A stretch of 64,000 nucleotides of DNA from Candidatus Omnitrophota bacterium (GTDB taxonomy: Bacteria > Omnitrophota > Gorgyraeia > Gygaellales > UBA12090). The stretch spans positions 74,682-138,681 of the forward strand of contig JAUSCZ010000035.1 of the NCBI GenBank assembly GCA_030674475.1, read 5' to 3'. The translations under genes were made by a program, and so were the position numbers. Of the stretch, positions 20,254-63,461 are shown in pieces. Under the pieces are notes generated by a model, which was not told where the DNA came from, searched no databases, and saw nothing but the letters and a program-made list of their open reading frames with translations. The stretch's first letter is position 1; every line of letters starts with the position of its first letter.

Positions 20254-20257
20254 TTTT

Positions 20258-20327: not shown

Positions 20328-20329
20328 TA

Positions 20330-20725
20330 TTAGAATCCCATTCTTTTAATCACCTCGGTCTGCGCGGAATCAAACTGGCCGGACTTATTCCGGGTGGCGA
20401 TCAATTCACAATTGCCGTCATCAATTAACCTTATCCGGTAACTCCAGCCGGAGTTAGAGCTTTTTTTACCCAGGGCATCTTTTAGCCCCGGAGCTTCAGT
20501 AGCCAGCTCGTCAATTGTAGAGGCGTATTTGCCGTATATGCCGCGATACATTGTCTGAATCTGCCCTAAGTAAGACAAGTTGGACTCAACCTTGGTCAGC
20601 GCGGTTTTATCCATCAGCTTAAAGTAATGTGGCATAGCCAAAAACCACAAGATCACAATGAGCACCGCCAGGACCGTTAGTTGTAACGACCTCTGACCTT
20701 TATCCTGAGAGCTGTCTTCGGGCAT
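20330..20725 (-). CDS. hypothetical small membrane protein, degenerate pilin-like
   Basis: Single TM segment (LTVLAVLIVILWFLAMP) followed by a small beta-rich domain, located within the pilin operon. Confidence 0.4.
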   Translation of the reverse strand: MPEDSSQDKGQRSLQLTVLAVLIVILWFLAMPHYFKLMDKTALTKVESNLSYLGQIQTMYRGIYGKYASTIDELATEAPGLKDALGKKSSNSGWSYRIRLIDDGNCELIATRNKSGQFDSAQTEVIKRMGF

Positions 20726-20753
20726 AAAAGTTTAGTTAAGCACTATCAAATGG

Positions 20754-21149
20754 TTACCACGGAATAGCAGTACTATTATAAGTTAAGTTTCCATCATTCG
20801 TGATATTCATATACTCACCGGCGTAAACCCCTTTTAACCTCTTAGCTGCTGCGGTGAATGTCTCGTTATTATTACCCATACTACCTATAGTATAGTTCCA
20901 CTCAGGCGAAGTACTTAGTCTTAATATTTCCGGAACCTCCACAGCTAACGCTGTCGTATTATCAGTATACCTTGACTCCAAAGTAAAATATGTTGCCTCA
21001 GCCTTGCGAATCATATTCAAGGCATTTTTGGCTGTAGAACCATGGCCTCTTTCCATAAACCTGGTATATTGGGGCAAGGCCAGGGCGGCCATAATGGCGA
21101 TAATGATAACCACGGTAATTAACTCAATCAAAGTAAAACCTTTCTTCAT
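20754..21149 (-). CDS. type IV pilin / pseudopilin
   Basis: MKKGFTLIELITVVIIIAIMAALALPQY, a canonical prepilin N-terminus. Confidence 0.8.
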   Translation of the reverse strand: MKKGFTLIELITVVIIIAIMAALALPQYTRFMERGHGSTAKNALNMIRKAEATYFTLESRYTDNTTALAVEVPEILRLSTSPEWNYTIGSMGNNNETFTAAAKRLKGVYAGEYMNITNDGNLTYNSTAIPW

Positions 21150-21238
21150 TTTATCCTCCTTAATTTGTAGGGACAGAACAATGTTCTGTCCCTACCTTAG
21201 CCTTGGCCTTAACCTTCGCAATTATTTACTATTACTAA

Positions 21239-22477: not shown

Positions 22478-22481
22478 ACTT

Positions 22482-25666: not shown

Positions 25667-26078
25667 TTTCTTCCTCCCTTTTAATCACCATCGCCCTGGA
25701 TGGCGCAGGATATGAAAACATCTCTAATTTATAAACCACCTCAATTCCCTCTTTGGTTATGGCGGTAATAGCCGCGTCTTGCACCTTGTCCCCGATTCTA
25801 AAAATCTTACCCCCAATAATCACCTGAGGCACCGGCCCTCCGGCCACCAGCCCCTCCACAAGGATTGCCGGAGGCACAATTTTTTCTTTAACAGAAACGG
25901 CTTCCGGCGGCTTAACCACAGGCGCGGCCCCGGGAAGCTGTTTTTCAAAGGGGTCACGCAGATTAAAGGCGGCATATTCCGTTTTCACGGTTTGGGCTTG
26001 GGCCAGGGATAGAAACCCAAGAATAAACAAATAAATACTCAAACCCGATATGGGCATTCTTGAAGCGCTATGTCTCAT
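25656..26078 (-). CDS. PilP-like pilus assembly lipoprotein (hypothetical)
   Basis: Signal peptide, proline-rich linker and a small beta domain. Located between the secretin and PilO-like genes. Confidence 0.45.
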   Translation of the reverse strand: MRHSASRMPISGLSIYLFILGFLSLAQAQTVKTEYAAFNLRDPFEKQLPGAAPVVKPPEAVSVKEKIVPPAILVEGLVAGGPVPQVIIGGKIFRIGDKVQDAAITAITKEGIEVVYKLEMFSYPAPSRAMVIKREEENDK

Positions 26079-26611
26079 TGCCCCTTAATATAGGTAATAC
26101 CCACCGTCATAGTCAAGGATAGAATATTTGGTTCAGCCGGATTATCGCTATTTTTAAGCGAAATGCTTTCAATCTGCAGTATATCTTTCTGAGACTCTAA
26201 AACGCTTATAAATTTAGCCAGGTTATGATAACTGCCTTTAAGCGCCAGCTCAAACAATGCCGCGCTGGAAAAATCACTATTTTGCTCTTTAGCGGGAGAA
26301 ACAGAGGCCACCTTCACTCCGGCTTTAGACGCGAATTCGTGAAAGGACTGCGCGCTCCAAGCCGGCTCTTTCTTAAGATACGGCCCGGCGTCCTGAGATA
26401 TTTTCTTATCCAACCCGGCCAACTCCTGAGCCAACTGAATCCTTTGCTCTTGGATGGCTATCTCTTCTTTTAAGGCCGCGGTTTTATCTTTTTGGATCTT
26501 ATATATCCGCGAGGCCGCCAGTAAAGCCAAAATTAGAATCACCAAAAAAATAAGCTTATCCTTATTTTTTAATATTGCCTGAAGATTTATATTATTAATT
26601 GAAAAAGCCAT
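26075..26611 (-). CDS. PilO/PilN-like bitopic pilus alignment protein (ORF track extends to 26806 through repeat DNA; start likely at 26611, MAFSINN)
   Basis: TM helix, a coiled-coil (AALKEEIAIQEQRIQLAQELAGL) and a C-terminal alpha/beta domain. The upstream in-frame extension is the repeat element region. Confidence 0.55.
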   Translation of the reverse strand: MAFSINNINLQAILKNKDKLIFLVILILALLAASRIYKIQKDKTAALKEEIAIQEQRIQLAQELAGLDKKISQDAGPYLKKEPAWSAQSFHEFASKAGVKVASVSPAKEQNSDFSSAALFELALKGSYHNLAKFISVLESQKDILQIESISLKNSDNPAEPNILSLTMTVGITYIKGQ

Positions 26612-26622
26612 AGTCTTTACCC

Positions 26623-26760
26623 GTAGGGGCGGGTTCGAACCCGCCCCTACCCCCGATAAGGGGAGGATTTCTTTCCGCCTGCCCCGCCAGCGGCGGTGGC
26701 CTCCCCCTGATAAAGGAAGTTTTCTTATCCCCTCCTTTACAAGGAGGGGTAGGGGAGGTA
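26623..26760. repeat. composite repeat: REP palindrome GTAGGGGCGGGTTCGAACCCGCCCCTAC followed by several CCCC/GGGGAGG-type hairpins
   Basis: Read directly from the sequence. Sits in the intergenic region between the PilM-like stop (26766) and the PilO-like start (26611). Confidence 0.75.
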
Positions 26761-26765
26761 TTTTT

Positions 26766-28319
26766 TTAGCTGCCGGAAATTTCAAAAACCGTAATCTTGT
26801 ATCCACCGCTCTGGGTATTGCGGGTAGAGGTTATCTCCAGGCGGCTTAAGCCAGCCATAAAATCAGGGCTCTCTTTAAGCTTTTTTAAGAAATCAGCTAT
26901 TGCCTCTTCCTCTCGCGCCTTATCCCCCAGATAAATCGCGCCTTTAAGTAAAAGCGATTTTGCTTTATCCTTTACCCCGGCCACAAGGTCAAACTGCTCA
27001 ATCCACAAGCCGGTGCGGACTGTCTCAGGCAGGACATTAAAAGACACAGTCAAGGACACCCGGGAAGCAATTAATTCCTGGATAAATAAAAGTTTTTTCT
27101 TATATTCCACCCTTCTCTGACGCAGGCCATCCAAATCCAGAATGCCTAAGTTCGCCGGGGCCAAGGCGCTTTCAGCCTCAGATTTTATGCGCTCTAAATT
27201 CTTAGCAGTGCTGAACTGTTCGGGCAAAGGAAAACCATAGGCCGCGGCCACTACTACCGCCGCCAGCACTAAAGGCCGCTTAACCGTATCAAAGCTAAGA
27301 GTGAATGCCGGAGCGGGAGCTGATATGTCTTTAGGCGCGCTCAAGCGGTATTCTTTGCGCGATTTTAATAAATCTACAGATAAATTTACCTTTATGGTAT
27401 CTCTGAGGCCTACGGCACAGGCCTTAAACGCGTCCAAGTCAGTCAAGGTGTTTAAAGCGCTATTCTGATCTAATTCCAATAACTGCACCTCTATACTTAA
27501 GTTTTTGCTCAATTCGGAGATTAGCCCGGGATTAGCATTTTTAGCCACCAGGATAATCTTATCCACCGAAGAGCCGGAAAATTGCCGGCGGAAATAACCT
27601 AGGGAAACCCTGAGCTCGCTGGTTAAGCGTTCCTGAGAAACCACCTCCGCGCCGCTTCCTGTGGAAGGCGCGTCCTGGGCCCGGGCGAGCCGGACATCCC
27701 GGCTAAAACAGGGAAAACCCGCGTTCACTATGGAAAACTCCATATCCAAATCATCATCAATAGCCATAAACGCGATAGACTGCTTAAGGTCAAGCTGTTT
27801 AGCGGCTGAAATTATCCTGAGCAAGGCAAAACTGGCCGATTCAATAGCCTTTAACTGAATACCCATTTGCTTAAATAAGCTAAGATAATAATCAAAGTTA
27901 CTCCTGGTAGCCGCCACATAGAAGATATCCATCTTGTCTGAACCTTTATTTAAGCGATGCTGATAGTCAAAAACCAGGTCCTCGGTTTTAAAAGGGAGAT
28001 ACTTCCTGGCCTCAAAGCTTATCCCGGAGGCAATTTCGGATTTTACCAGAGAAGGAATCTGAAAACCCCGGATAAAAAGGTCCTTGCTGGTAAGGCCAAG
28101 CACTGCTTCCCGAGCGCTAAATTTATTCTCTTTAAGAAATCCCTTGATCTCCCGCGACAAGTTGGCCTGAGCGCTGTCTTCGGCTGTCGGAGTGCCGGTT
28201 AAAGCCTTATCCGCCGCAACCGCTATAGCTAAGCTGGCCTGCCGGATAATATCCTTGCCCCGCAGTTCAACCGCGACAATCTTATCTTTGCCAAAATATA
28301 TTCCTAATTTATTTCCCAT
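26766..28319 (-). CDS. pilM: type IV pilus assembly protein PilM (actin-like ATPase fold), probably fused to PilN-like C-terminal TM segment
   Basis: PilM-like N-terminus (MGNKLGIYFGKDKIVAVEL), with a C-terminal TM segment LVLAAVVVAAAYGF. Confidence 0.65.
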   Translation of the reverse strand: MGNKLGIYFGKDKIVAVELRGKDIIRQASLAIAVAADKALTGTPTAEDSAQANLSREIKGFLKENKFSAREAVLGLTSKDLFIRGFQIPSLVKSEIASGISFEARKYLPFKTEDLVFDYQHRLNKGSDKMDIFYVAATRSNFDYYLSLFKQMGIQLKAIESASFALLRIISAAKQLDLKQSIAFMAIDDDLDMEFSIVNAGFPCFSRDVRLARAQDAPSTGSGAEVVSQERLTSELRVSLGYFRRQFSGSSVDKIILVAKNANPGLISELSKNLSIEVQLLELDQNSALNTLTDLDAFKACAVGLRDTIKVNLSVDLLKSRKEYRLSAPKDISAPAPAFTLSFDTVKRPLVLAAVVVAAAYGFPLPEQFSTAKNLERIKSEAESALAPANLGILDLDGLRQRRVEYKKKLLFIQELIASRVSLTVSFNVLPETVRTGLWIEQFDLVAGVKDKAKSLLLKGAIYLGDKAREEEAIADFLKKLKESPDFMAGLSRLEITSTRNTQSGGYKITVFEISGS

Positions 28320-28913: not shown

Positions 28914-29297
28914 CTATTTAAACAGCTCATCAATAATCGCGAAGTGCTTATCTAAGGTGAGAATTACTGCTTTATTCTCTTTGGCCAAAACTGCTAAATA
29001 ACAATCAATTAACGATATGGTTTTACCCTGTTTCCTGAGTTTGTTCGCTAAAAACCCTGCCTGTTGCCAGGTGGAATCACTCTCGTTCAAAATTTTAACT
29101 ACTGAAGCTAAATCCGAGATAAGCTCAGTTTCTTTTTCAGACCTAACCCCCTGGATCAATTCGGCCAGGACAAGCTGACAAGTGGCGGCAACATTAAGAA
29201 GGAGGGCTGATTCTATCTCTTTAGTTATGGGGTGAGAAGTTTTCTTAAGATACTCTATCCAGGCTGAGGTATCAATAAGAACTAATTTAGCGCTCAT
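28914..29297 (-). CDS. vapC: type II toxin VapC (PIN domain ribonuclease)
   Basis: LIDTSAWIEY with the conserved acidic Asp, ~127 aa, overlapping an upstream antitoxin gene. Confidence 0.8.
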   Translation of the reverse strand: MSAKLVLIDTSAWIEYLKKTSHPITKEIESALLLNVAATCQLVLAELIQGVRSEKETELISDLASVVKILNESDSTWQQAGFLANKLRKQGKTISLIDCYLAVLAKENKAVILTLDKHFAIIDELFK

Positions 29298-29532
29298 TAT
29301 GGCGGGCCTTCAAGATTGTCTTATCAAAAGAGAAATTACCCCTTAAAAGATCTATTTTTTTTAGTCTTTCTTTTCTGAGAAATTCCTCGATAGCAATTCT
29401 TACCGCCTTGCTTTTATTTTTTAGATGTGTAGCAGTGAGTAACTGAGTTAATTCCTCTTTTTCTAAATTTATGGTTGTTCTCATTCTTATTGCCTCCGGA
29501 TAAATTATACAATGATAATCATAACAAGTCAA
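29287..29532 (-). CDS. vapB: type II antitoxin VapB-like (probable start at 29484, MRTTINLEK, GGAGG SD upstream)
   Basis: Small DNA-binding antitoxin with a 4-codon overlap to the PIN gene. Confidence 0.7.
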   Translation of the reverse strand: MTCYDYHCIIYPEAIRMRTTINLEKEELTQLLTATHLKNKSKAVRIAIEEFLRKERLKKIDLLRGNFSFDKTILKARHNER

Positions 29533-29694
29533 ATATTTTTATGATTCAGATGTATTCATTTTACTGCTGTTTTCCTGAAGTTATAATCCCTATTCCTACC
29601 AAGTGAGCCCAATCTATTTTGCTGGCGGATAACGCAGCCATCAATTAATTCATAACTAACTGCTATAAATATAGTTGTAAAGAATGTCCCTGGC

Positions 29695-30090
29695 TCAACT
29701 AATGATATTTACTGACAGGTGCTTCCTGTAATTTTCAAAGTCGTTATCGGTAGTGAAAATTATGAGGTTTTCCAAATGAGCCACAGCGCAGATTAAAAAG
29801 TCTGTTGTAGAACCTTGAATCCCCCTGCTTCTGCAGATATTGCTGAATTCCGCCGCTTTCTCAAAATGCTCTTTTTTAAGAACAATATCTTCAAAAGCGG
29901 AAAGTATGTCTTTTAACTTATTGAACTGCTTGGAATCGGGGATCCCGGATAGAATTTCCTGCCTTACGGGACCTATTATAAAGACCCTGCCGTCATTGAT
30001 GAGGCCTTTTAACCTGGAGGTTAATTCTGCGTCAGGATTTCTATGCCGCAGGACAGCTGACCAAACGCAGGTATCAACCAGCACCTTCAT
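29695..30090 (-). CDS. vapC: type II toxin VapC (PIN domain), second copy
   Basis: MKVLVDTCVWSAVLRH..., ~131 aa, overlapping an upstream antitoxin. Confidence 0.8.
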   Translation of the reverse strand: MKVLVDTCVWSAVLRHRNPDAELTSRLKGLINDGRVFIIGPVRQEILSGIPDSKQFNKLKDILSAFEDIVLKKEHFEKAAEFSNICRSRGIQGSTTDFLICAVAHLENLIIFTTDNDFENYRKHLSVNIIS

Positions 30091-33317: not shown

Positions 33318-35054
33318 TTATTCCTTTATCTTTACAACATTTAAAGACAGGTATTCTACATTTACTTCAAAATCATCATAAAGCACACCGCAATATTCCA
33401 CTTTTGGAAGGAAATAATAAAGCCTTGCCTCGTAAGTCTTGCCCGGAGCTAAAACAATAGAGGGAACATAGGTCGTGCCAAGTATTGAGAATGTCGCGGA
33501 CAGACTCCTCACATTCATCATGCTTTTATGTACCGGCACACCTGATCCTTTCTCTGTAATTCCAACCAGGGTATAAAAATTTATTCCTTCATCAGTAATG
33601 TCGTGGTTAATTAATACCTGCCAGATAATATTCAAAGCTTCACCGGTCTTAGCTACAAATTCATAGGTAACCCCTTCATGTGTAGTGTCGGGGTAGGTAC
33701 CTTTAATTTCTCTAAACAGCCCTGGGTTATCAACCAAACACGAAGTAACATCACTGGCATATCCGGCACATTGGCCAGCAGTGTATGCAAGGCTATCACA
33801 ACCCGGACAGGCAGTCCTCTCCTCGCACTTACTTTCAGTACAATTTTTATCGAAACCTGGGTCTCTTGTTGTTTCCCCATCTTCAAGCATTACACCAGAG
33901 CACACATTCTCTTCGCAGCAGGACTTACTGTCCTCGCATCTCTCATAATTATTGGCATAAGCGCTACAAGCACTAATGCAAGTCTTAAACGCATCTTTGA
34001 GCTTGTAAGTATAGGATGCCACTTTCACCTTGGCGATGCATTCTACATATCCGTTACAAGTACAAGTATCGCAGGTAGTAACATAAGTTGTACTGCAAGA
34101 AGGAGGCGGCGGAGTCCAGGGAGGAGGCGGCGGAGTCCAAGAAGTACAAGTAGTTACAGGAACACTAACACAGTTACAACTATACGTGCAAGAGTCAGAC
34201 ACATTATCTACTATATTACTGCAAGAAGTAGCACTACTACTATTGCAATCCCCAGCCGGATCCCGAGAAGGACAACTATTGTCTAAGGTACAAGAAGAAC
34301 ATCCGACTGGTGTGCGAGATGTTCCGTCATTTTCCCAGACATAGGTTACATCATAATAAGAAGTCAAACCATCGCATCTGGGCGGGCCCGAATTCTCGGA
34401 ACAGGCCTGAAAAATAGGGCTGAGGCTTGGCCCGCAGGTTGCCGGACAACTCCAGATCCTATACCCATCAATATCGGTTCCTGTTACGGTACAGTCATCA
34501 GAGCAGTTTGGCGTCAGCTCATCGCTATCCGCGTCCGGACAACCTCGTCTCTGCAGGCCATAAGGAGAACCTGATGAAACTGAGCCAGAACTACAGGTAA
34601 GATTTTCACAATAAGTAGAATCGTCGCTTGATCTCGAACCGCCAGTACCTGTTGTGCCTACACCACATTCAGTTTGCGCGCAATCATCAACCTGAAAAGG
34701 AGGCTCAGTGCAATTATAATTAGCCAACGTATCATGATCACCTGAACTGCACTTAATTGCTTTGGGAAAAGAAGCAGTGGTCAAACAGCAATCCGGACAT
34801 TCCTTCTTAAGCTCAACACATTTATTACATTCTGAAACACTGCTAAGTGCGGTCGAACAATCTCCTCCGGTTAACAGATCTTTTCCGTCTAACTGGCTAA
34901 GAATTATTGGGTCAGTCCCGTAATCCTTGCTCTCTGTATCAGAAGTATAATTAGACGGCAGGTATTTTATGCGCTTATCCTTAGGATAGGCTGGGCTATT
35001 AAAGAAAGCCAGAAATAACAAGAGTAGAATTAAGGCCTTTTTATTTTTTACCAT
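33318..35054 (-). CDS. large secreted cysteine/threonine/serine-rich protein with PPPPWTPPPP motif; candidate pilus-tip adhesin
   Basis: Signal peptide, then a ~400-aa segment carrying dozens of Cys (CSSC, CTCNGYVEC, CCEENVC). The operon context with pseudopilins supports a pilus-associated role. Confidence 0.5.
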   Translation of the reverse strand: MVKNKKALILLLLFLAFFNSPAYPKDKRIKYLPSNYTSDTESKDYGTDPIILSQLDGKDLLTGGDCSTALSSVSECNKCVELKKECPDCCLTTASFPKAIKCSSGDHDTLANYNCTEPPFQVDDCAQTECGVGTTGTGGSRSSDDSTYCENLTCSSGSVSSGSPYGLQRRGCPDADSDELTPNCSDDCTVTGTDIDGYRIWSCPATCGPSLSPIFQACSENSGPPRCDGLTSYYDVTYVWENDGTSRTPVGCSSCTLDNSCPSRDPAGDCNSSSATSCSNIVDNVSDSCTYSCNCVSVPVTTCTSWTPPPPPWTPPPPSCSTTYVTTCDTCTCNGYVECIAKVKVASYTYKLKDAFKTCISACSAYANNYERCEDSKSCCEENVCSGVMLEDGETTRDPGFDKNCTESKCEERTACPGCDSLAYTAGQCAGYASDVTSCLVDNPGLFREIKGTYPDTTHEGVTYEFVAKTGEALNIIWQVLINHDITDEGINFYTLVGITEKGSGVPVHKSMMNVRSLSATFSILGTTYVPSIVLAPGKTYEARLYYFLPKVEYCGVLYDDFEVNVEYLSLNVVKIKE

Positions 35055-35473
35055 TGGTCACATCCAGTTCTATTAATAAGGCCGCCTTGGTTAGTAATAG
35101 TCATATTCCTACCACTACAGGCCAAACCGGAAACCGCGCGGGTAGCCGTGGCAGTAAAGCTTGGGCTGGTGGTGGCGTTAATAGAATAAGTAAAACTGTC
35201 TCCTTCTAAATCAATCCCTAAATTCTCAGTATCATTAGTATACTCTCCCTCGTTCAAATAATACCTCTGCTGGGCAGAGTAGATTAATTGCAGGTTAGCC
35301 TCGGCTTCTTTGGCCTTATTTTTCTCTGAAGATCGGCTAAAATTACCCATATTCAGGCTAACCAAAATCCCGATAATTACCAAAACCACCAGCAACTCAA
35401 TCATAGTAAACCCCGTTAGAAGCCTCTTGCCTCTTACAGGTTGCTCATTAACTTCTAACGGGGCAGGCCCCAT
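35048..35473 (-). CDS. type IV pilin with 21-aa leader (ORF track starts at TTG 35485; ATG at 35473 has an AGGAGA SD upstream)
   Basis: ...GKRLLTG|FTMIELLVVLVIIGILVS prepilin cleavage/methylation site. Confidence 0.7.
   Translation of the reverse strand: MGPAPLEVNEQPVRGKRLLTGFTMIELLVVLVIIGILVSLNMGNFSRSSEKNKAKEAEANLQLIYSAQQRYYLNEGEYTNDTENLGIDLEGDSFTYSINATTSPSFTATATRAVSGLACSGRNMTITNQGGLINRTGCDQW
35410..35470. repeat. family B palindromic element copy 2, encoding the pilin leader peptide
   Basis: About 85% identical to 16961-17019. The CCCCGTTAGAAG / CTTCTAACGGGG arms are an inverted repeat. Confidence 0.75.
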
Positions 35474-36091
35474 TTTCACTTGCAAATCTCCTTATAAGTG
35501 CGATAAATCGCACCGCTACGCAACATGAGATAAATCGCCTACCTGCGGTAAGCAGGCACCGCTACGCGACATGAGTGACCCACGGTAGGCGGAGGTAAAA
35601 CCCGCGCCCTTATCACTCCCAAGGAGCAACTGCATCTCAGAGTATCGGTATAACCAACTCAAGAACAGACTTTTAAAAACTCCTGCTATAATAAAAAACC
35701 AAGCTCTACTTTTTAAGGGTAGCTTGGCTTCGCACTCTAAGAATAAAACCGAGTGCTCTTTTCTTGTTTGAGCTTAACAACTTGGCTTTATTCTGGTTTT
35801 AAAGTTAAGTTGTCGGTGCGCCAGGCTACCTTATCCAGAGGGCTTTCCCCTCCTTTACTTCTGGTAAGACTTAGGTCCTTTAGCTTTGCGCCCCGCGGTT
35901 TCCCGCGGTTTGCCCCGGCCTTAATTTCCTGTGCCGGCCTACCGGTTTCCTGTTTGCGCGGTAGATTTTCGGATGTGGTAATTAAAGTATACACCATAAA
36001 AGAACTAATTACAAGGGTAAAACCGCCTTTTCAGGAAAGCGCTTTCTTGGGAGGAATTTTATCGGTTGAACTCTTTGGTTATCGCTTAGCT

Positions 36092-36949
36092 TTACCTTTC
36101 CCGCAGGAAATTCTCCTTTATGAAATCAATCAGGTATTCGTAAAGCGGCTGGGAGGTTTTTATAAATCCCTCTATCTGCTGCCAGCGGATATCCAGATAT
36201 TCATGGGTAATCATATTCCTTAACCCCGCGAACCTGCCCAGCTTCTCGGCAGTGTTTTTATCAAAATCTTTCAGCAAAGACAGCGATTTCAGGATCTCTT
36301 TATATTTCTCCGGCAGGCGGATTTTCTCTGAGGCCAGAACAATCTCGGCGATGTCAATCGAACAAAGCGCGATGCCTTCCGCCCAATGCTCAACATTTCT
36401 TTTTTTGCCGCGATCAGACTCATAAAGGGATTGATTAAGCTCCCGGAATTCCTCGTAAGATTTTAATTCTTCTTCCAGGAAATCAATCAAAACCTCCAAC
36501 TGTTCTTTATCTTCCAGGCTTAATGATTTTGACCTTTCCCGAATCCGCCTATAGTCTTGAATAAATTCTTTAAAATCCGCGGACGCGGAATTAATGGTTA
36601 GGAAGAATCGCCAATACAGGGAACGGTCTTTTATAAATATGGGCAGGCCGGTCTTTAGAACCTTGGAAGCCATCGTGCTTGCTGCCCGGTTTAAAACCAG
36701 AAGGTCAACTTCTCTATCCAGAAGATTTTCCAGTTCCCGCCATATCCGGTCTTCTTCGGGATAAAAGGTGTCTTCTTCCCATTCAAGAGCCCTGCCCGCC
36801 GGATTAAAATAAACCGCGATATCCATATCAGAATCCGGCAGGTGCTGGCCTTTGGCAAAAGAGCCGAAAATAAAGGCCATAGAGATATTTTTTTGGTTTT
36901 TGAAATACTCTTTTAACTCTTGGATCTTGACCTTTACCGGCGTTATCAT
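36092..36949 (-). CDS. nucleotidyltransferase (MNT, Pol-beta superfamily) fused to HEPN (DUF86-like) domain
   Basis: N-terminal GSFAKG...DSDMDIAV nucleotidyltransferase motif, with a C-terminal RNMITHEY (Rx4H HEPN motif). Confidence 0.65.
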   Translation of the reverse strand: MITPVKVKIQELKEYFKNQKNISMAFIFGSFAKGQHLPDSDMDIAVYFNPAGRALEWEEDTFYPEEDRIWRELENLLDREVDLLVLNRAASTMASKVLKTGLPIFIKDRSLYWRFFLTINSASADFKEFIQDYRRIRERSKSLSLEDKEQLEVLIDFLEEELKSYEEFRELNQSLYESDRGKKRNVEHWAEGIALCSIDIAEIVLASEKIRLPEKYKEILKSLSLLKDFDKNTAEKLGRFAGLRNMITHEYLDIRWQQIEGFIKTSQPLYEYLIDFIKENFLRER

Positions 36950-41273: not shown

Positions 41274-44060
41274 TTACGCGTCCAGCACCTTCTTCAAATA
41301 GCTTCCGGTGTAAGACTTATTTGATTGAATAATATCCCGCGGCCTGCCGCAAGCAACTACCTCACCGCCCAAATCCCCTCCCTCGGGCCCTAAATCAATT
41401 ATATAGTCGGCTCCTTTTATCACATCCAGATTATGCTCAATCACAATCACGCTGTTGCCTTTATCAACCAAACGGTGCAGGACTGATAAGAGTTTATCCA
41501 CATCGGCAAAGTGCAGTCCGGTAGTCGGCTCATCCAGGACATACAGGGTATTCCCGGTTGAGCGCTTGCTCAGCTCCGAGGAAAGCTTAATCCTCTGGGC
41601 CTCGCCTCCGGAAAGGGTAGTCGCGGACTGGCCTAACTGAATATATCCTAAACCCACGTCGCTAAGGGTATCCAGGATATTTTTTATTTTGGGGATGGAG
41701 GAAAAAAACTCTCCCGCCTCCTCAACCGTCATATCCAGGACATTGGCTATGGTTTTTCCCTTGTAGTTGACCTCCAGGGTCTGCTGGTTAAAGCGCTGTC
41801 CCTGACAGACATCACATTTCACATACACACAGGGGAGAAAATGCATCTCAATTTTCTTTATCCCGTCTCCGGCACAGGCCTCGCATCTGCCGCCCGGGAC
41901 ATTAAAAGAGAATCTACCCGGACGGTAACCCCTGACCTTAGCCTCAGGCAGGCTGGAAAAGATATCGCGAATATAAGAATAGACCCCGGTATAAGTAGCC
42001 GGATTGGAACGAGGAGTCCTTCCGATGGGTGATTGATCCACCACAATCACCTTATCAATAAACTGATGCCCCTCTATTCTTTTGTGCCGGCCGGCTTTAA
42101 GTTTACTCTTATAAAGCCTTTGCATTAAAGCCGGGTATAAAATATCATACACCAGGGTGGATTTTCCCGAACCCGACACCCCGGTAACGCAGACCAATAA
42201 ACCCAGGGGTATTTCCACATCTATATCTTTAAGATTATGTTCGGCGCCGCCGATAACCTTAAGCATCTTTTTAGTATTTATAGGCCTGTTACTTAATTTA
42301 GGACCTATTTTCAGCTCTTTGTTTAAATACCGCGAGGTTAGGGAATCTTTATTTTTTAGCAATTCCCCAACCGGGCCGCTAAAGATTACCTTGCCTCCAT
42401 GCCTACCCGCGCCCGGGCCCAAATCCACCACCCAATCCGCGCTACGGATAGTTGCCTCATCGTGCTCAACCACTATTAAAGTATTGCCTAATTCTTTAAG
42501 CGCTTTAAGGGTAGCCAGAAGCTTATCATTATCTCTTTGATGTAAGCCAATACTTGGCTCATCCAAAACATACAAAACTCCTACCAGGCCCATTCCCACC
42601 TGAGCCGCCAGACGAATTCTCTGGGACTCCCCTCCGGAAAGCGTGGAGCTAAGCCGGTCTAAACTTAAATAACCCAGGCCCACATCAACACAGAATTTTA
42701 ATTTTAAGATTATCTCCTTTAAAACCTGGTGGGCGATAAGTTTCTCTCTTTCCTGAAGCCGCAAAGTCCTGAAAAAATCCATAGCCCGGACCAGAGACAT
42801 CTTAGTTACCTCGTATATGGATAAGCCGTTTACTTGAACGCTTAAACTCTCAGCTTTAAGGCGCGCGCCCTTACATTGAGGACACGGCTGATCCGACATA
42901 AAACGGGAAATCTCTTCCTTTAGATAATCCGACTTGGTTTCTTTAAACAGCCTTTCCAGGTGGGGAAGGACCCCTTCATAGCGCTTGCCCCAAATCAATT
43001 CATCAGTGCCATAGAGAATTATCTTTCGCTCCGAAACGGTTAATTTTTTAAAAGGCTTTTCTATGTCGATCCTCAAAACGCGGCATAATTCCCTCAAAAA
43101 GCCGCGATAATACATACTATAGCCTCTGGGGCCCTTTCTCCAGGGCTCGATTGCCTCAATCACCGGCCTCTCTTTATCCGGAATAATAAAATCCGGATCA
43201 AATTCAAATTTCACCCCCAAACCATTACAAGCCGGACAGGCCCCGTAAGGAGAATTAAAAGAGAAAACCCGCGGCTGGACCTCGGCGTAACTTATGCCGC
43301 ATTTCAGGCAGGAATATTCCTGGTTGTAGAGTTTATCTCTTGAGCCTGATGAAACTATAACTACCCCCTTGCCGACTTTCAGGGCCGTCTCCAGCGAATC
43401 CGCCAACCTCTTCTTATCCTCTTCCCTGACTATAAGCCTATCCACCACCGCCTCAATATTGTGGAGCTTATATTTACCCAGATCCGGGAATTCATCTAAT
43501 TCATAGATGTTCCCGTCAACCCTGACCCGCGCAAAGCCGGCCTTACGCACCTGAGCCGGAATTTCCCGGTATTGGCCCTTCTTGCCCCTGATTAAGGGTG
43601 TAAGTATTTCTATTTTCTGATTCTTAAGCCCGGATAAGACATCAGCGCTGATTTCATCCAAGCTCTGACGGGATATCGCCTGTTGGCACTTATAACAATG
43701 CACGATCCCAATCCGGGCAAAAAGAAGCCTTAAGTAATCGTGGATTTCGGTCTGGGTGGCCACGGTGGAACGGGGGCTTCCTCCGGCAGTCCTCTGCTCA
43801 ATAGAGATAGCCGGCGACAGGCCCTCAATAGACTCCACATCCGGCTTCTGCAGCTGCTCTAAAAACTGGCGGGCGTAACTGGAGAGGCTTTCCACATAGC
43901 GGCGCTGGCCTTCGGCGTAAATAGTATCAAAGGCCAGTGAAGACTTGCCTGAGCCGGATAAACCGGTAATCACAATCAGTTGGTCGCGCGGCAGGCTTAA
44001 GTCAATATTCTTCAGGTTATGGACCTTGGCCCCGCGGATAATTATTTGGTCAGTGGGCAT
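41274..44060 (-). CDS. uvrA: excinuclease ABC subunit A
   Basis: Two ABC ATPase modules ([20 protein letters not shown]), zinc-finger cysteines, and LSGGE signature motifs; 928 aa. Confidence 0.95.
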
Positions 44061-44758
44061 CTTTTAAACAACAACCTTGGCCCCAAAAAAAACGCCTCCC
44101 GGACTATTTCCCGGGACATTTTTGAGGAACCGGCCCTGCGATCGGTAAAGGTAATCGGGATTTCTTTCAACGATAAACCTAATCTTTGGCACCAGAAATT
44201 AACTTCAATCTGAAAGGCATAACCATTAGATTTAATTAAACTTATCGGCAAGGCTTCTAATGCTTTCCGGGAAAAACATTTATAACCGCTGGTTAGATCG
44301 GTTAACTTTAGTCCGCTCATCAGGCGGGCGTAGATATTTGCCGCGTAACTTAAAATAAGCCTGGATAACGGCCAGTTCATAATCCTGATTCCATCCAGAT
44401 AACGCGAGCCGATAACCACATCCGCGGATTGGACAGCTTCCAGGAAAACCGGAATCTCCCGCGGGTCATGAGAAAAATCGGCATCCATTTCAAAAATATA
44501 CTCGTAGTTATCGCCTAAGGCAAACCTAAATCCTTCAATATACGCCGAACCTAATCCTAACTTCGCGGGGCGCTCTATCAAAAATACTTTTTCTTTATAT
44601 CTTTCAATCAGGCCGGAAGCTATCTCCCTGGTCCCGTCAATAGAATTATCGTCTATTATCAGAATATCCGCCTCTAGCCTCAAACTTACAATCTTTTCAA
44701 CAACCCCCTTTAAATTCTGAGCCTCATTATAAGTCGGCAAAATGATGAGTACGCGCAT
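44042..44758 (-). CDS. family-2 glycosyltransferase (polyprenol-phosphate mannosyl/glucosyl transferase-like; ORF track extends to 44818, start likely 44758 [12 protein letters not shown])
   Basis: PTYNE...DDNSxDGT GT2/Dpm1-like motifs. Confidence 0.75.
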
Positions 44759-44837
44759 AAGAATTTTTGGTTCATTCGTAAATAATATAGAGTATTCTCC
44801 ACACACATTACAATACAAGATGAGACATCAAAATGAC

Positions 44838-45062
44838 ATTACGTAACGAAACTAATGGTTTTTGAGCGAATGACGATTTTAGCCAAAGCAGCTTGAGTAT
44901 TTTGGGAATCCCAGTGGAGCGAAGCGACAACACTGGGACGGCGAGGATGTTTGAGGGGTATTTGTGAGAACAAATACCCCGAGTTCCGCAGCCGCCAAAA
45001 TGCGAAAGACCTTTGGCGTTAAAAAATCGTCTTTGAGCGAAAAGACCATTAGTTTCGTTCAC
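44838..45062. repeat. ~225-nt structured element bounded by ~40-nt imperfect terminal inverted repeats (ACGAAACTAATGGT...GACGATTTT), with internal hairpins; candidate MITE or structured ncRNA
   Basis: Terminal IRs read from the sequence. Internal hairpins include GGGGTATTTGT-GAGA-ACAAATACCCC and CCCAGTG...CACTGGG. A hairpin with a T-tract follows at 45132-45190. Confidence 0.55.
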
Positions 45063-45186
45063 AGAACTCTCCACAATAATTACGAAAGAACCGGATTTCA
45101 TAATCCTGACACTTTAGTTTTAAAAACAAGGACAGTGCCCATTCCTTAATTTACGCGGATTACTAATGGACACTGTCCTTATTTTT

Positions 45187-45438
45187 TTATTTTTTGGACT
45201 TCTTCTTTTTCTTGCCGCCCCTGACCATCTTGGCGCAGGAGATATCACCCTGTTTATCCACAAAATAGAGATAACCGGATTCCTTCTCCACCCCTACCTT
45301 GGCCACCTTCTCAGGCTTACCGCCTTTTTTGCCGCCCCTGGCCATCTTGGCGCAGGAGATATCACCGGCCTTGTCCACAAAGTAGAGATACCCATCTTTC
45401 CTCTTTATCCCGGCCTTTGCTACTTTTTTTTGTGCCAT
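45187..45438 (-). CDS. small lysine-rich protein with internal ~40-aa tandem duplication (GYLYFVDKxGDISCAKMxRGGKK x2)
   Basis: A strong SD (GAGGGGAGGTG) lies 8 nt upstream of the ATG. The antisense + ORF is judged spurious. Confidence 0.55.
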   Translation of the reverse strand: MAQKKVAKAGIKRKDGYLYFVDKAGDISCAKMARGGKKGGKPEKVAKVGVEKESGYLYFVDKQGDISCAKMVRGGKKKKKSKK

Positions 45439-51322: not shown

Positions 51323-52602
51323 TTATCTCAAAAAATCCGGAATAACATCTTTTTTCACTAAATCCAGGTAGCTGTCGCGCTTACGCGTGGTATAAAATTT
51401 ATTCCCTTTAACCATTATCTCGGCTGGCTTCAGACGGCAGTTATAATTGGAAGCCATGGAAAATCCGTAAGAACCGGCGCTCATCACCGCCAGGTAATCG
51501 CCTTCATTAAGCTCAGGCATTTGCCTGTCCTTAGCCAGGAAGTCCCCGGATTCGCATATCGGGCCCACCACGTCAAACCTTTCCGCTTTCCGCTTTCCCT
51601 GCCTGCTCGTCCGGCAGGCGCTTTCTGCAAAGGCAAAATATCGTGATGCGCGCCATAGAGAGACGGCCGGATTAAATCATTCATCCCGGCATCCACGATT
51701 ATAAAATTCTTCAGCGGAGTTTTCTTGATATAAAGAATTTTGGCAACCAGTATACCGGAAGGACCCACTATGAACCTCCCCGGCTCTAAGATAATTTTCA
51801 ATCCGGTGCTTTTCAATAAAGGAAGTATTTTCCCGGCGAATTCTTCGGCAGTCTGGGGCTTCTCATTATTATAAATAATGCCTAATCCGCCGCCAATATT
51901 AAGATATTGAATATCTATCGCTTCTTCTTTCAGTCTTTTGATAAATTTTATCATCTTCTTGATGGCCAAAATATAAGGAGCGCCGTCAATTATCTGAGAG
52001 CCTATATGCATATGCAGGCCGCTAAACTTTAAATGAACGAATTCAGCCCGGTTTTTAAAAATGTTATAAGCGGTATCTAAATCAATGCCAAACTTGTTGG
52101 TGAGCTTGCCGGTAGTTATGTAGCTGTGGGTTTTGGGCTCAACATCGGGATTTATCCTTAAAGCGACTGAGGCGTTCACCCCCAAATCGCACGCCACCCT
52201 ATTAATCAGCTCTAATTCCGACAGCGACTCCACGTTGAAAAAGAGTATCTGTTTGGCGATTGCCTGGCGGATTTCCTCTTCGGTTTTTCCCACTGACGCG
52301 TAGACTATTTTCTTTGGGTCACAGCCGACCAGAAGCGCCTTATACAACTCGCCTCCGGAGACAATATCCAAGCCCGAGCCCGCCTTTACCAGCGCCCGCA
52401 GAATAGCCAGATTAGAGTTTGCCTTCATTGAGTAGCAGATAACCGGACTTAATGCCCTAAAGGCCGCGGCTAATTTACGATAATGGCTCAAAAGGGTATT
52501 ATAACTATAAAGATAAAATGGGGTAGAAACCTTATCCGCGATATCGGCTATCTTTACCGCCTCGCAATAAAGCTCATTGTTTTTATATTTAAAGTCGTGC
52601 AT
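51323..52602 (-). pseudogene. lysA: diaminopimelate decarboxylase (lysA) split by a single frameshift into 372-aa and 82-aa ORFs
   Basis: The upstream ORF carries the LysA core as far as YGAHHDILPL; the downstream ORF carries DVVGPICESGDFL and the C-terminus. The shift lies within or next to the tandem CTTTCCG repeats at 51579-51600. Confidence 0.75.
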
Positions 52603-62539: not shown

Positions 62540-62616
62540 AATATTTTAAACCATCGAACAAAGGAACAAAGAAGAACAAAGAAGACGCTTTATATAACTT
62601 ATTAATAGGCAATAAA

Positions 62617-63303
62617 TTACCTATTAACTATTTCTCTTCGCGGCCTACCATTCCGAGGCATAAATACTCCTCGCTCTAATACTAATCTTCTTAAGAATTC
62701 ACCTGAACCCAGCGGTTTTTCAAAATCATCAAATAATTCCTCTTCTTTTTCATCAAATTCCAGTAGAAAACTCTGATATTTCAATCTTCTTCCTTCAGCC
62801 GTTAGTCCAAAAGTGGCAAATAAAGGATTCTCCTCTGTAAGACTGTCCACTTTACCATAAATATAATATGCCGCGCTGCTAAACGGATATTCAGCCGCTG
62901 ACTGAACAAGCCCGGCATTAATCGGATTTCTCTCAATATATCTTCCGCAGGTTAATAGATATTCTTCCTTCTCGACAGCCTGGCATTTAAATCTACCCTG
63001 AAAAAGATGCCCAACGGAGTTATATTTTTTATGATAATAGTAAACATAAGAACGCGCGATACCGGCCATAATGGACGATATTTCTTTAGGATTATCCAAC
63101 GCCAGCAGGAGATGGTAGTGATTAGACATAATGACCCAGTGATGAATCCTTAAGTTACGCTGGCGGGTATATTTAGTTAATATCTCAATAAAACGGTTAT
63201 AATCTTCGTTATCATGGAAAATATTATTCTTGGCGTTTCCTCTATTAAAGATATGATAGATCAGCGACCCAGTTATACTATAAGAACGGGCTGTATAAGG
63301 CAT
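62617..63303 (-). CDS. IS200/IS605-family Y1 (HUH) transposase, REP-associated tyrosine transposase (RAYT)-like
   Basis: HUH motif (SNHYHLLL), a downstream catalytic Tyr region (YVYYYHKKY), and a ~228 aa size. Confidence 0.7.
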   Translation of the reverse strand: MPYTARSYSITGSLIYHIFNRGNAKNNIFHDNEDYNRFIEILTKYTRQRNLRIHHWVIMSNHYHLLLALDNPKEISSIMAGIARSYVYYYHKKYNSVGHLFQGRFKCQAVEKEEYLLTCGRYIERNPINAGLVQSAAEYPFSSAAYYIYGKVDSLTEENPLFATFGLTAEGRRLKYQSFLLEFDEKEEELFDDFEKPLGSGEFLRRLVLERGVFMPRNGRPRREIVNR

Positions 63304-63370
63304 AGATTAAACTATATTGGAGAATGATAATGTTGTCAAATAGTTTTTGTGTATCTATAAGGTATTCAAT

Positions 63371-63445
63371 TTGTTATGTAAAGCGTCTTCTTAAAACTTT
63401 AAAAATTTGTTATGTAAAGCGTCTTCTTAAACTTTTAAATTTTAA
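63371..63445. repeat. tandem direct repeat (AATTTGTTATGTAAAGCGTCTTCTTAAAACTTTAAA x2) upstream of the transposase gene
   Basis: Read from the sequence. Confidence 0.7.
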
Positions 63446-63461
63446 ACTTTCTTAAACTACC

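Follow-up and report, generated by a model that had tools for sequence, protein, structure and literature searches.

The element described here lies in a 64,000-nt stretch of DNA from a Candidatus Omnitrophota bacterium (contig JAUSCZ010000035.1), referred to below as the window. It is framed by a GT2 glycosyltransferase gene, whose start codon lies 10 nt from its end, and by the gene of an 83-aa protein (Table 1). An earlier note on this DNA had described inverted arms, nested hairpins and a following hairpin with a T-run, and had offered a MITE, a cis-regulatory RNA of GT2 and a novel small RNA ending at the T-tract as readings. The nested hairpins GCCAAAG/CTTTGGC, CCCAGTG/CACTGGG and GGGGTATTTGT-GAGA-ACAAATACCCC were all found, and the inverted arms are present with slightly shifted coordinates. 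The hairpin with its T-run is real but is a separate, conserved terminator outside the element. It is unchanged in 10 of 10 related loci that have no cassette and thus belongs to the 83-aa gene. The T-tract at 45181 is this neighbor’s terminator and is not conserved beside other copies of the element.

Table 1. Features of the element and its surroundings, in window coordinates (strand given as a dot where the feature has none).
Feature	Coordinates	Strand	Remarks
GT2 glycosyltransferase gene	44042..44758	-	Pfam PF00535; gene models of relatives
Possible decayed TSD, left copy	44761..44768	.	AAAAATTC on - strand; weak
Whole inserted cassette	44769..45092	.	Outer TIRs GGTTC[T/A]TTCGTAA[T/A]TA[T/A]TGTGG
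Outer inverted repeats	44769-44798 / 45063-45092		22-24 nt
Long arm	44769..44844	-	Reads ACGTAATGTCAT ... TTTACGAATGAACC; adjoins core 5' end and GT2 start codon
Sigma-70-like promoter match in long arm	44784..44813	-	TTGTAA-18-TATATT, pointing at GT2
Structured core, 215 nt	44845..45059	+	Rod (P1-P5) and three-way junction with hairpins P6 and P7-P9
P1 5' strand, inner inverted repeat	44845..44863	+	Pairs with 45041-45059; 19 nt, 95 %
Second arm pair	44869-44880 / 45023-45034		12 nt, 92 % complementary
Hairpin P6	44909..44938	+	Loop GAGCGAAGCGACAA with GCGAAGC mini-hairpin flanked by tandem G.A pairs
P7-P8-P9 arm	44939..44994	+	Flanks ACGGCGAGGAUGUYUGAG and CGAGUUCCGCAGCCGCC near-invariant
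P1 3' strand, inner inverted repeat	45041..45059	+	Partner of 44845-44863
Short arm	45060..45092	-	Reads GGTTCTTTCGTAATTATTGTGGAGAGTTCTGTG
Possible decayed TSD, right copy	45093..45100	.	TGAAATCC on - strand
Two-way terminator-like hairpin of 83-aa gene	45122..45186	.	22-nt arms, 91 %; T-run
RAYT-like Y1 transposase gene	62617-63303		17.5 kb from element

On its sequence features, the segment from 44769 to 45092 is a MITE or mobile insertion cassette of 324 bp. Its true ends are the outer inverted repeats, which the earlier note overlooked, and its limits are accordingly wider than those first proposed. The cassette is missing from the equivalent intergenic site in ten close relatives (L001-L010); the spacer measures 429 nt here vs. 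178 or 86 nt in ten loci with an identical 83-aa protein. Among these strains, only the present one carries an insertion in the gap that separates the start codon of GT2 from the terminator of the 83-aa gene. The flanking octamers in the window agree at only 5 of 8 positions, a weak match, and clean target-site duplications (TSDs) are confined to other copies.

Near-identical cassettes of 283-327 bp with the same ends occupy at least seven other, unrelated loci, four of them with clean or near-clean 8-bp duplications. The duplications match at 8/8 positions in L100 (GTATTTTT), L145 (GAATATTT) and L097 (TATATTTA) and at 7/8 in L014 (ATTACTCA/ATTACTTA), while none is visible in L047. The 22-24-nt ends recur in six other arm-bearing copies; L143 yielded the left end alone and L142 neither end. 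Seven other independent arm-bearing copies were read from DNA (eight loci, with L100 and L022 counted as one insertion). The neighbors of the copies at other loci, armless ones included, are unrelated and include genes for a membrane protein, a restriction-modification enzyme, YajQ, DarT-like and XerC-like proteins, CysS and RibF. Together, the outer repeats, the 8-bp duplications elsewhere, the empty sites and the copies at unrelated loci support the MITE reading.

The cassette encodes no transposase, and its sole long ORF is not conserved in frame. Neither a scan of 50 window ORFs nor the Pfam annotations of the corresponding homologous part of L001 revealed a DDE transposase, and no cognate transposase bearing the cassette’s terminal repeats was found in the window ORFs, the L001 stretch or viral contigs. 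The start of the terminal repeat (GG[C/T]TCTTT), together with the 8-bp duplication, presumably recalls the ISL3 family. In the form suited to matching a parent transposase gene, the end sequence reads GGTTCTTTCGTAATTATTGTGG. Four scans of viral contigs (IMG/VR) with the two-arm pattern, the core motif, the outer terminal repeat and the back-translated ORF gave no match, which indicates that the element is not phage-borne in that collection. A scan of a genome collection with the 19-nt inner inverted repeat gave six matches, about the chance level, of which one (L014) is real. A metagenome scan with the three-motif pattern TTGAGCGAA...GAGCGAA...TTGAGCGAA returned 4 true copies among the 120 loci listed; the pattern was a poor choice, and the other listed matches include unrelated tandem repeats. 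Copy number per genome looks low: the 64-kb window contains a single copy, as does each 20-kb locus, and an exact-pattern search matched once in the genome of UBA12090, the GTDB representative. So low a number is unusual for a MITE. At least three loci co-occur in one metagenome, SRR3989338.

The cassette resembles bacterial MITEs and mobile insertion cassettes such as Correia/CREE of Neisseria, ERIC, RUP and MIC231 of Bacillus cereus in its size, its terminal repeats, its AT-rich 8-bp target duplications, its variable presence among close strains, its choice of short intergenic sites beside start or stop codons and its folding into a long hairpin. It differs from them in its apparently low copy number per genome, in the absence of a known parent IS and above all in its interior. 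This interior is a deeply conserved, covarying and strand-specific three-way junction that occurs without arms in other Omnitrophota, and it has inverted repeats of its own and has been found flipped.

The plus strand of the core folds with -102.4 kcal/mol (z = -11.7), and none of 200 shuffles is as good. The minus strand reaches -85.5 kcal/mol (z = -9.5), 17 kcal/mol short of the plus strand, and the whole cassette -121.7 kcal/mol (z = -10.8). The first 15 nt of P1 are the same in both arms. Between P1 and the second arm pair lie 10-11 nt (TTGAGCGAAT / TTTGAGCGAAA) that form a direct rather than an inverted repeat; read as a helix, they present 5'-GA-GC-GA-3' on both strands and give tandem G.A pairs around a GC step. 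The paired ends form a rod of about 55 bp that includes these tandem pairs. GAGCGAA, which occurs three times, was considered as a repeated protein-binding motif; tandem G.A helical modules are preferred because the two arm copies oppose each other in the helix.

The most conserved parts of the core are its unpaired junction and loop sequences. Of 17 copies, 16 have an identical P6 loop and the exception reads GCGCAGC (L147A); the flanks of the P7-P8-P9 arm are unchanged in 14 of 15 aligned copies. The stems vary and compensate. The P6 stem appears as CCCAGUG/CACUGGG, GCCGGUG/AACCGGC or AUCAUAGUG/UACUAUGA. The apical hairpin P9 (44955-44980) is freely variable, with compensatory change at 11 of 11 pairs, and in L047 it is wholly replaced by a different hairpin.

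The core is a member of a so far undescribed, Omnitrophota-wide family of elements predicted to fold into a Y shape of about 215-250 nt. Seventeen DNA copies were collected (15 CM matches, L149 and L152), with 67-99 % identity to the window core. In addition, 58 clusters of spurious ORF calls derive from the family, on contigs as long as 385 kb; two of the clusters bear the name Omnitrophota or Omnitrophica. The orthologs L100 and L022 are 97.7 % identical in the core, 83-86 % in the arms and 78-82 % in the flanks. Divergent members (67-83 % identity) are entirely without transposon arms and keep the fold through 31-36 compensated pairs. Across the alignment, compensatory changes occur at 36 of 78 pairs, and pairing is kept in 95.7 % of cells; slid controls reach 39-46 % paired cells and 7-12 compensatory pairs, and none of 500 shuffles attains the observed values. 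An independent MAFFT and RNAalifold run reproduces this architecture and shows compensatory change at 31 of 73 pairs.

Wobble pairs reveal the structured strand. The plus strand shows 33 G.U cells in 18 pairs vs. 3 A.C cells in 3 pairs, an excess that marks it as the structured one. This strand is C-rich with negative GC skew, and the G.U excess runs against that compositional bias. The tandem G.A motifs are likewise present on the plus strand only.

The family probably consists of non-coding RNAs. A search of the whole window with Rfam 15 (4227 models) gave no match to the core at the gathering score, nor did a local search at E <= 10, and seven other members have no match at E <= 1. The absence of an Rfam match over the element, the strong covariation and the plus-strand wobble pairs bear out, as a candidate, the novel ncRNA of the earlier note. 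A tRNA/tmRNA scan returned one tRNA-Ala only, unrelated to the element. The promoter scan revealed no convincing conserved plus-strand promoter or terminator in the arm-bearing subfamily. A TGnTAnAAT-like motif precedes three or four divergent copies, where it overlaps a stem and is partly specific to the 5' side. The sigma-70-like match in the long arm is a consensus match only (two found vs. 1.4 expected by chance), and its 18-nt spacing is, as the sequences read, not preserved in the long arms of other copies.

Several other identities were considered and rejected. The sole long ORF, 97 aa on the minus strand, differs in frame from member to member and is interrupted in L047. The frame of a conserved mini-ORF (AUG...UGA, 8 codons) also varies, and structural motifs account for its start and stop codons. 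A CsrA sponge, suggested by a GGAUGU match, would have three GGA motifs only, one of them base-paired. The architecture or required neighbor genes of SRP, 6S, RNase P and Y RNA do not fit, nor do those of retron msr/msd, bridge RNA, omega RNA and attC; existing Rfam models of these classes gave no match.

The plus strand of the core runs antisense to the neighboring genes in 8 of 8 independent arm-bearing DNA copies and in 13 of 16 independent loci overall. The long arm, which in the window matches those of L100, L014 and L017, lies 3' of the plus-strand core in the seven other independent DNA copies and 5' of it in the window. The inner arm segments are swapped correspondingly, reading ...CATTACGT/core/CACAG... 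in the window vs. ...CTGTC/core/ACGTAATG... elsewhere, with the core in the same direction. The core-arm junctions in the window are ...CATTACGT/AACGAAACTAATGGTT... and ...GTTTCGTT/CACAGAAC... As assembled, then, the core of the window is inverted relative to its arms, a reading drawn from one assembly and from one protein-level assembly (P0002, with a second junction of the flipped type) made by a method that produces chimeras. The L017 contig (Logan) stops 7 nt into the inner repeat and is uninformative on orientation. The mixed-arm ORFs P0001, P0059 and P0002 were considered as real recombinant elements and downgraded to chimeras, since the Plass/SRC protein-level assembly of one run joins one N-terminus to two loci. 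Both orientations relative to the arms are seen, but at different loci. The core was probably flipped by recombination at the inner repeat P1. The flip means that the antisense orientation to the host genes was kept, although the cassette was inserted the other way round.

The reading favored here, with a probability of roughly 55 %, is a non-autonomous DDE-type cassette that carries, on its plus strand, a non-coding RNA of an ancient family and whose cargo is flipped in this copy. The cassette entered the spacer bounded by the terminator of the 83-aa gene and the start codon of GT2, and its cargo would be one member of the ancient Y-shaped family typical of Omnitrophota. The fold is under selection on the plus strand, antisense to the surrounding genes. 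Its most likely product would be a stable non-coding RNA transcribed from a plus-strand start of its own and probably bound by protein. The element would thus be an RNA gene caught between transposon ends, moved in trans by a transposase encoded elsewhere, and flipped by recombination between its own 19-nt terminal repeats. A mobile non-coding RNA gene is the best guess, with a role in single-stranded DNA as its main rival.

In that rival, the fold would act as a strand-specific hairpin in ssDNA, for example as a substrate or recognition site of an HUH/Y1 enzyme, a primase or a recombinase, comparable with REP/REPIN, IS200/IS605 ends, ssi signals and attC, and the flips would be the flip/flop of a quasi-palindrome. 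We regard this as unlikely, though several features fit it. The invariant GCGNAGC mini-hairpin, a rule that the variant L147A loop still obeys, and tandem sheared G.A pairs in a Y-GA-R context are hallmarks of stable DNA. GCGAAGC and the tandem G.A helix of 5'-TGAGCGAAT-3' are best known as unusually stable DNA, and the RNA mini-hairpin is far less stable. DNA mini-hairpins melt at 76.5 C vs. 39 C for the RNA r(GCGAAAGC), and those of the GCGNAGC type are found at ssDNA priming sites (PMC13037366). The strand asymmetry could be accounted for just as well by G.T wobble. The core has also undergone at least two flips, and beside cysS it points in opposite directions in two related genomes. The strand-specific hairpin, the extragenic position and the RAYT-like gene in the same window also recall REP/REPIN with RAYT and IS200/IS605 ends. 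However, the repeats flanking the RAYT-like gene, GAAGACGCTTTACATAAC... (GAAGACGCTTTACAT), are unrelated to the element, which also lacks a conserved GTAG-type 5' tetranucleotide. IS200/IS605-type elements use the lagging-strand template, which is the strand that becomes single-stranded. By GC skew and gene orientation, the structured plus strand is instead the leading-strand template, the ‘wrong’ strand for such a role. With 215-250 nt (up to 324 nt with the cassette), a conserved three-way junction and purine-rich junction bases, the element is much larger and more RNA-like than REP, attC or IS200 ends, and five to ten times the size of the 20-40-nt REP/REPIN palindromes. Its terminal repeats and 8-bp duplications indicate DDE transposition rather than HUH chemistry.

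Mobility alone has also been weighed: a selfish, palindromic MITE without a function of its own, whose structure is a by-product of inverted repeats homogenized by gene conversion, both from copy to copy and from arm to arm. Terminal repeats, duplications and empty sites are as expected for it, recent spread or conversion could account for the near-identity of the cores across loci (98 %), and the Plass chimeras show several copies coexisting in one community. This account is nevertheless improbable, because DNA-level maintenance is symmetric and does not predict a 33-to-3 wobble bias, conservation is highest in the unpaired junctions and loops, and armless divergent members retain the fold by compensated pairs that include the full replacement of P9. 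An invertible switch, with a recombinase phase-varying the downstream surface-glycan gene GT2, would resemble fimS, hin and the Bacteroides capsule promoters in its few-hundred-bp segment (215 bp) between short inverted repeats of 19 nt, seen in both orientations relative to its flanks; invertons, too, are often located ahead of surface-glycan genes. Besides GT2, copies have an O-antigen-type transporter locus and a gene for restriction-modification as neighbors, and in L139 alone a gene for a XerC/D-like tyrosine recombinase lies 25 nt downstream of the copy. A quasi-palindromic interior with strand-specific covariation, a conserved folded element, is foreign to invertons, however, and the promoter scan found no sigma-70-like promoter within 44845-45059. 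No serine or tyrosine recombinase appears among the 50 window ORFs scanned or the L001 Pfam annotations, the orientation relative to genes is the same in the window and elsewhere, no locus shows an ON/OFF pair, and other neighbors (yajQ, cysS, ribF) are housekeeping genes; a switch of this kind is quite improbable. Hardly any credence is left for a cis-acting leader, riboswitch or mRNA-stabilizing hairpin of the GT2 transcript, one of the earlier proposals. The element does sit directly upstream of GT2, and its minus strand still folds, but the structure is selected on the opposite strand, other copies lie beside unrelated genes with no constant gene-family association, and close relatives express the same GT2 without the element.

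Returning to the mobile non-coding RNA gene, its closest counterparts are orphan classes such as raiA, ROOL, HEARO, OLE and lineage-specific Rfam motifs. It shares with them a length of about 200-250 nt, numerous covarying helices, junction and loop nucleotides that do not vary, confinement to a single lineage and a tendency to lie near or in mobile DNA. It differs in that its ends pair into the G.A-containing rod, that it stands inside a cassette with terminal repeats and duplications, mostly antisense to flanking genes, and that it is known here from sequence.

Omnitrophota is a large, almost uncultured phylum, and a literature search found no paper on RNAs specific to this lineage. Its length of 215-250 nt, its more than 30 covarying pairs, its invariant junctions and the lack of any Rfam match make the element a strong candidate for a novel class of ncRNA. 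Its near-identical core also carries a caveat for metagenome assembly, where it causes chimeric joins such as the Plass proteins. If the ssDNA alternative were true, the element would stand out among DNA-hairpin elements for its size and complexity, being built of textbook ‘extraordinarily stable’ DNA motifs. A broader and more tentative proposal, which we consider possible but rather doubtful, is that the core represents a phylum-wide new class, either a stable ncRNA with a cellular partner or a strand-specific DNA hairpin machine, that acts as a self-contained invertible transposable module, survives capture by transposon ends, flips in place via its terminal stem and is maintained in antisense orientation to host transcription. 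Its capture in a cassette is a natural experiment, and the flipped core in a cassette inserted in reverse suggests that selection acts on how the fold is oriented with respect to host transcription or replication.

The window comes from the chromosome of an Omnitrophota-like bacterium and carries uvrA, the minus-strand glycosyltransferase gene GT2, a gene for a two-repeat 83-aa protein, aspartate dehydrogenase, and dap, lys and arg genes. Its strand bias is extreme, the minus strand encoding 62 of the 65 ORFs that reach 90 aa, and the GC skew of the plus strand is uniformly negative throughout. A look-up of the 83-aa protein returns ten loci with the window's gene order, where the spacer between its gene and GT2 measures 86 nt (five loci) or 178 nt (five loci) versus 429 nt in the window. 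Because the spacer is shorter in all ten relatives, ~44765-45118 is strain-specific, and an outer inverted repeat forms the ends of the insert, referred to here as the cassette. The hairpin and T-run that the earlier note had placed next to the element are real but do not belong to it; they are unchanged in all related loci, with or without the element, and are therefore the terminator of the 83-aa gene. The 83-aa protein is lysine-rich, with two 39-residue repeats (GYLYFVDK.GDISCAKM.RGGKK) and no Pfam match; its identical sequence occurs in 100 assembly-index blocks and is encoded at 10 of 10 loci listed, from different samples. In cassette-free relatives (L001-L004 and L009), a different, 93-nt insert with 11-nt terminal inverted repeats (CCCGGATTTTG...CAAAATCCGGG) occupies nearly the same site. 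This intergenic site is an insertion hot spot of small mobile elements; the 93-nt insert represents a second repeat family.

Scanning species-representative genomes with the inner repeat recovers a single genuine copy; it belongs to Candidatus Omnitrophota UBA12090 (L014), and its locus is unrelated to that in the window. Metagenome matches add at least four more: L022, L097 and L100, whose cores are ~98 % identical, and L047 (88 %). These five loci share one layout: a short arm (GGTTCTTTCGTAATTATTGTGGAGTAGCCCTGTC), the structured core read on its plus strand, core(+), and a long arm (ACGTAATGTCAT, ~43 variable nt, CCACATTATTTACGAATGAACC). Cassettes are 324-327 bp long, L097 being a 283-bp deletion form. 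In L100, L145, L097 and L014, the ends are flanked by 8-bp direct repeats of AT-rich host sequence. The reading as a MITE, with additional copies and target-site duplications (TSDs), is supported at unrelated loci; the TSDs are clean or nearly so in these four copies, and the window's candidate duplication has decayed to 5/8 matching positions. Taken together, terminal inverted repeats, TSDs, empty sites and dispersal mark the insert as a MITE or mobile insertion cassette, probably moved by a cut-and-paste (DDE) transposase. The element is carried within a non-autonomous transposon that makes 8-bp TSDs. No transposase bearing the cassette's ends was found. Neither a DDE transposase nor a serine or tyrosine recombinase occurs among 50 window ORFs scanned against Pfam or in the Pfam annotations of the homologous L001 locus, which cover the rest of the window (~38-54 kb). 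No family member was found in IMG/VR viral contigs.

Coordinates of the cassette, its relatives and other features of the window
Feature	Locus	Position	Strand	Detail
Cassette	window	44769-45092		324 bp
Structured core	window	44845-45059	+	215 nt
Outer inverted repeat	window	44769-44798 / 45063-45092		ends of insert
Inner inverted segment, outer pair (P1)	window	44845-44863 / 45041-45059		19 nt, 95 %
Inner inverted segment, second pair	window	44869-44880 / 45023-45034		12 nt, 92 %
Perfect 11-bp hairpin	window	44955-44980		
Hairpin and T-run	window	45122-45186		
83-aa gene	window	45187-45438	-	
93-nt insert	L001	10321-10413		
93-nt insert, partial copies	L001; L097	18367-18529; 2776-2832		
8-bp TSD	L100			GTATTTTT
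8-bp TSD	L145			GAATATTT
8-bp TSD	L097			TATATTTA
8-bp TSD, two copies	L014			ATTACTCA / ATTACTTA
Paired element copies	L147	1145-1392; 1938-2182	-; +	
Element after cysS	L138; L140	2365-2603; 2474-2696		
RAYT-like gene	window	62617-63303	-	228 aa
Repeats flanking RAYT-like gene	window	~62560-62615; ~63370-63450		
85-nt repeat	window; L022	8349-8433, 58155-58243; 6-95		
lysA	window	51323-52602	-	
c-di-GMP-I riboswitch	window	35812-35924	-	47 bits (gathering score 35)
Pilin-like gene cluster	window	35048-35485		ComP_DUS/Pilin_GH proteins
Pilins and type IV pilus genes	window	19840-28319		
PIN-domain and MNT/HepT-like genes	window	28914-30090; 36092-36949	-	

A RAYT-type Y1/HUH transposase (Pfam Y1_Tnp; NCBIfam REP_Tyr_transpos at 70 bits, under the cut-off of 80) is the sole mobile-element protein detected in the window. 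Its gene is flanked upstream by two direct copies of AAGTTTAAGAAGACGCTTTACATAACAAATT and downstream by inverted AAAGCGTCTTC, repeats unrelated to the cassette. An 85-nt intergenic repeat (CCCTCGCTCCGCTCGGGAG followed by a hairpin rich in G and T, CCAGAGGCCAG...TTTTTT...CTGGTTACTGG) lies just downstream of a gene at both window sites, recurs in L022, another Omnitrophota contig, and looks like a REP-like or terminator-like repeat family. The diaminopimelate decarboxylase gene lysA is split into overlapping 372-aa and 82-aa ORFs, whereas L001 and L002 have a single 421-aa gene; the split is a frameshift, pseudogene or sequencing error near 51500. The c-di-GMP-I riboswitch lies upstream of the pilin-like cluster. 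Two PIN-domain toxin-like genes, in sequence of low GC content, and a fused MNT/HepT-like nucleotidyltransferase-RNase gene are small toxin-antitoxin/defence islands amid a housekeeping region.

Within the core, the inverted arms described earlier are present, at slightly different coordinates (Table), and the nested hairpins between them are confirmed, including the perfect 11-bp hairpin. The plus strand of 44838-45062 folds at -102.4 kcal/mol versus -54 +/- 4 for shuffles (z = -11.7), and the minus strand at -85.5 kcal/mol (z = -9.5). Between the two inverted segments lie 10-11 nt (TTGAGCGAAT / TTTGAGCGAAA) that repeat directly and not in inverted form; facing each other, they give 5'-UU-GA-GC-GA-AU-3' on both strands. 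This stretch is predicted to form an uninterrupted helix in which two tandem G.A steps flank a GC step, and hairpin P6 is capped by a GA-GC...GC-GA arrangement like that of the tandem G.A helix of the rod.

L100 and L022 are orthologous insertions, with site and TSD in common, and are 97.7 % identical in the core, 83-86 % in the arms and 78-82 % in the flanks. By these identities, the core is under its own constraint, stronger than that on the arms. Its minus strand carries an open frame sometimes annotated by gene callers. Used as a protein query, the translated frame retrieved 12 ORF calls, and a profile search then retrieved 58, two of them labelled Omnitrophota/Omnitrophica by NCBI and some on contigs of up to 385 kb. 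The calls are rejected as proteins, because the reading frame over the same nucleotides differs between members and is interrupted in L047. Through these calls, divergent copies (L138-L152) could be read as DNA. With six copies as its basis, a covariance model detected 15 members in the first set of fetched loci and later L149 and L152; the DNA of 17 of at least 58 family members was examined. The members are between 99 % and 67 % identical to the window core. Divergent members are without transposon arms, differ in the sequence of P1 (AAAUGAAUCUGGCGG...) and carry an additional hairpin between P3' and P2'. In L147, two diverged copies, inverted and ~550 nt apart, flank a 112-aa ORF, and one has the loop variant GCGCAGC. 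No member tested matched an Rfam family, and a literature search returned no mention of the core element family.

The fold is conserved and strand-specific. When aligned with the model as guide, the members have standard pairs in 95.7 % of cells, and both sides change in 36 of 78 pairs; none of 500 shuffles reach the observed paired fraction and compensated count, and sliding partners by 1-3 columns leaves 39-46 % paired and 7-12 pairs with both-side changes. An alignment made without the model (MAFFT and RNAalifold) arrives at this architecture too, with compensation in 31 of 73 pairs, and independently predicts a GC-GAA-GC mini-hairpin. The P9 hairpin is swapped outright for unrelated hairpins in several members. 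Conservation is highest at unpaired or junction bases (GAGCGAAUG, GGAGCGAAGCGACAA, ACGGCGAGGAUGUYUGAG, CGAGUUCCGCAGCCGCC and UUGAGCGARAAA). G.U wobbles occupy 33 cells (18 pairs) versus three cells (three pairs) for A.C, and an A.C cell on the plus strand is G.U on the other. The plus strand is C-rich, so mutation pressure should favour an A.C excess, the opposite of what is observed, and all G.A motifs would read C.U on the minus strand. Thus, the fold was selected on the plus strand.

These features suggest that the fold acts as an RNA made from the plus strand. A rod and three-way junction with purine-rich invariant junctions, like the element's size, are typical of structured ncRNAs, and variable hairpins are inserted or swapped as in RNA families. 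Several arm-less copies also have an extended -10-like motif, TGnTAnAAT, at their 5' edge, which counts toward this reading. Specific tests contradict an inverton, a functionless palindrome and a GT2 leader; a cis-regulatory RNA of GT2, raised in the earlier note, is contradicted, the structured plus strand being antisense to the flanking genes.

The main rival is that the core may function as folded single-stranded DNA. In its favour, the core contains a self-pairing helix, 5'-TGAGCGAAT-3', with four G.A pairs, reportedly a classic DNA duplex ascribed to Li, Zon and Wilson in 1991. The window also holds the RAYT-like HUH gene, and the invariant GCGAAGC and its variant GCGCAGC fit the GCGNAGC mini-hairpin. 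As DNA, this hairpin has extraordinary stability (Tm 76.5 C), whereas its RNA form is weak, and it occurs at single-stranded DNA priming sites (PMC13037366). However, the element's size and the DDE-type cassette ends count against this rival, as does the replication strand; judged by GC skew and gene orientation, the plus strand serves as template of the leading strand, whereas single-stranded DNA is normally exposed on the other strand. It is therefore rated below an RNA.

In the window, the inner arm segments are swapped (...GACATCAAAATGACATTACGT|core(+)|CACAGAACTCTCC... versus ...GTAGCCCTGTC|core(+)|ACGTAATGTCATTTT... elsewhere). The outer 22-24 nt, being inverted copies of each other, are uninformative on orientation; it can be read from the inner 10-20 nt and from the 43-nt variable stretch, where the window matches perfectly in the swapped sense. 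These arm sequences show the core to be inverted relative to its cassette, a flip known from one assembly. The break appears to lie within or at the edge of 15 nt identical in both P1 arms, and the flip would require no more than recombination, or a template switch, between the two 19-nt arms of P1; no dedicated invertase was found among the 50 window ORFs or the L001 Pfam annotations. P0002, a spurious ORF call overlapping a core copy, has a second flipped-type junction, core(-) followed by a different long arm, and two of P0001, P0059 and P0002 join the window's junction to two different loci. All three are discounted as evidence of real recombinant elements; they are protein-level (Plass) assemblies from SRR3989338, chimeric through the repeated core. 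They show that several element copies coexist in one community, and exemplify repeat-driven chimeras in a public protein catalogue (SRC, run SRR3989338).

In every arm-bearing copy, core(+) is antisense to co-directional flanking genes, and its 5' side faces the next start codon at 6-110 nt. The window cassette is inserted the reverse way, and the flip restores the antisense orientation. Overall, core(+) is antisense at 13 of 16 independent loci, a count in which loci found via ORF calls may carry a slight orientation bias, and at all five independent loci found by DNA pattern. Most simply, this bias would reflect selection against an active, very stable RNA module within host operon transcripts. 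In L138 and L140, the element directly follows the cysS stop codon in opposite orientations, and the ispF-hexapeptide-cysS synteny common to both genomes is broken at the element.

As a MITE or mobile insertion cassette, the vehicle is an ordinary example, whereas the cargo represents a new family of structured elements, without counterpart in Rfam. What is unusual is the combination: the module shows deep conservation, covariation and strand specificity, it has been captured between transposon ends, and it has flipped in place such that its orientation relative to the host is kept.
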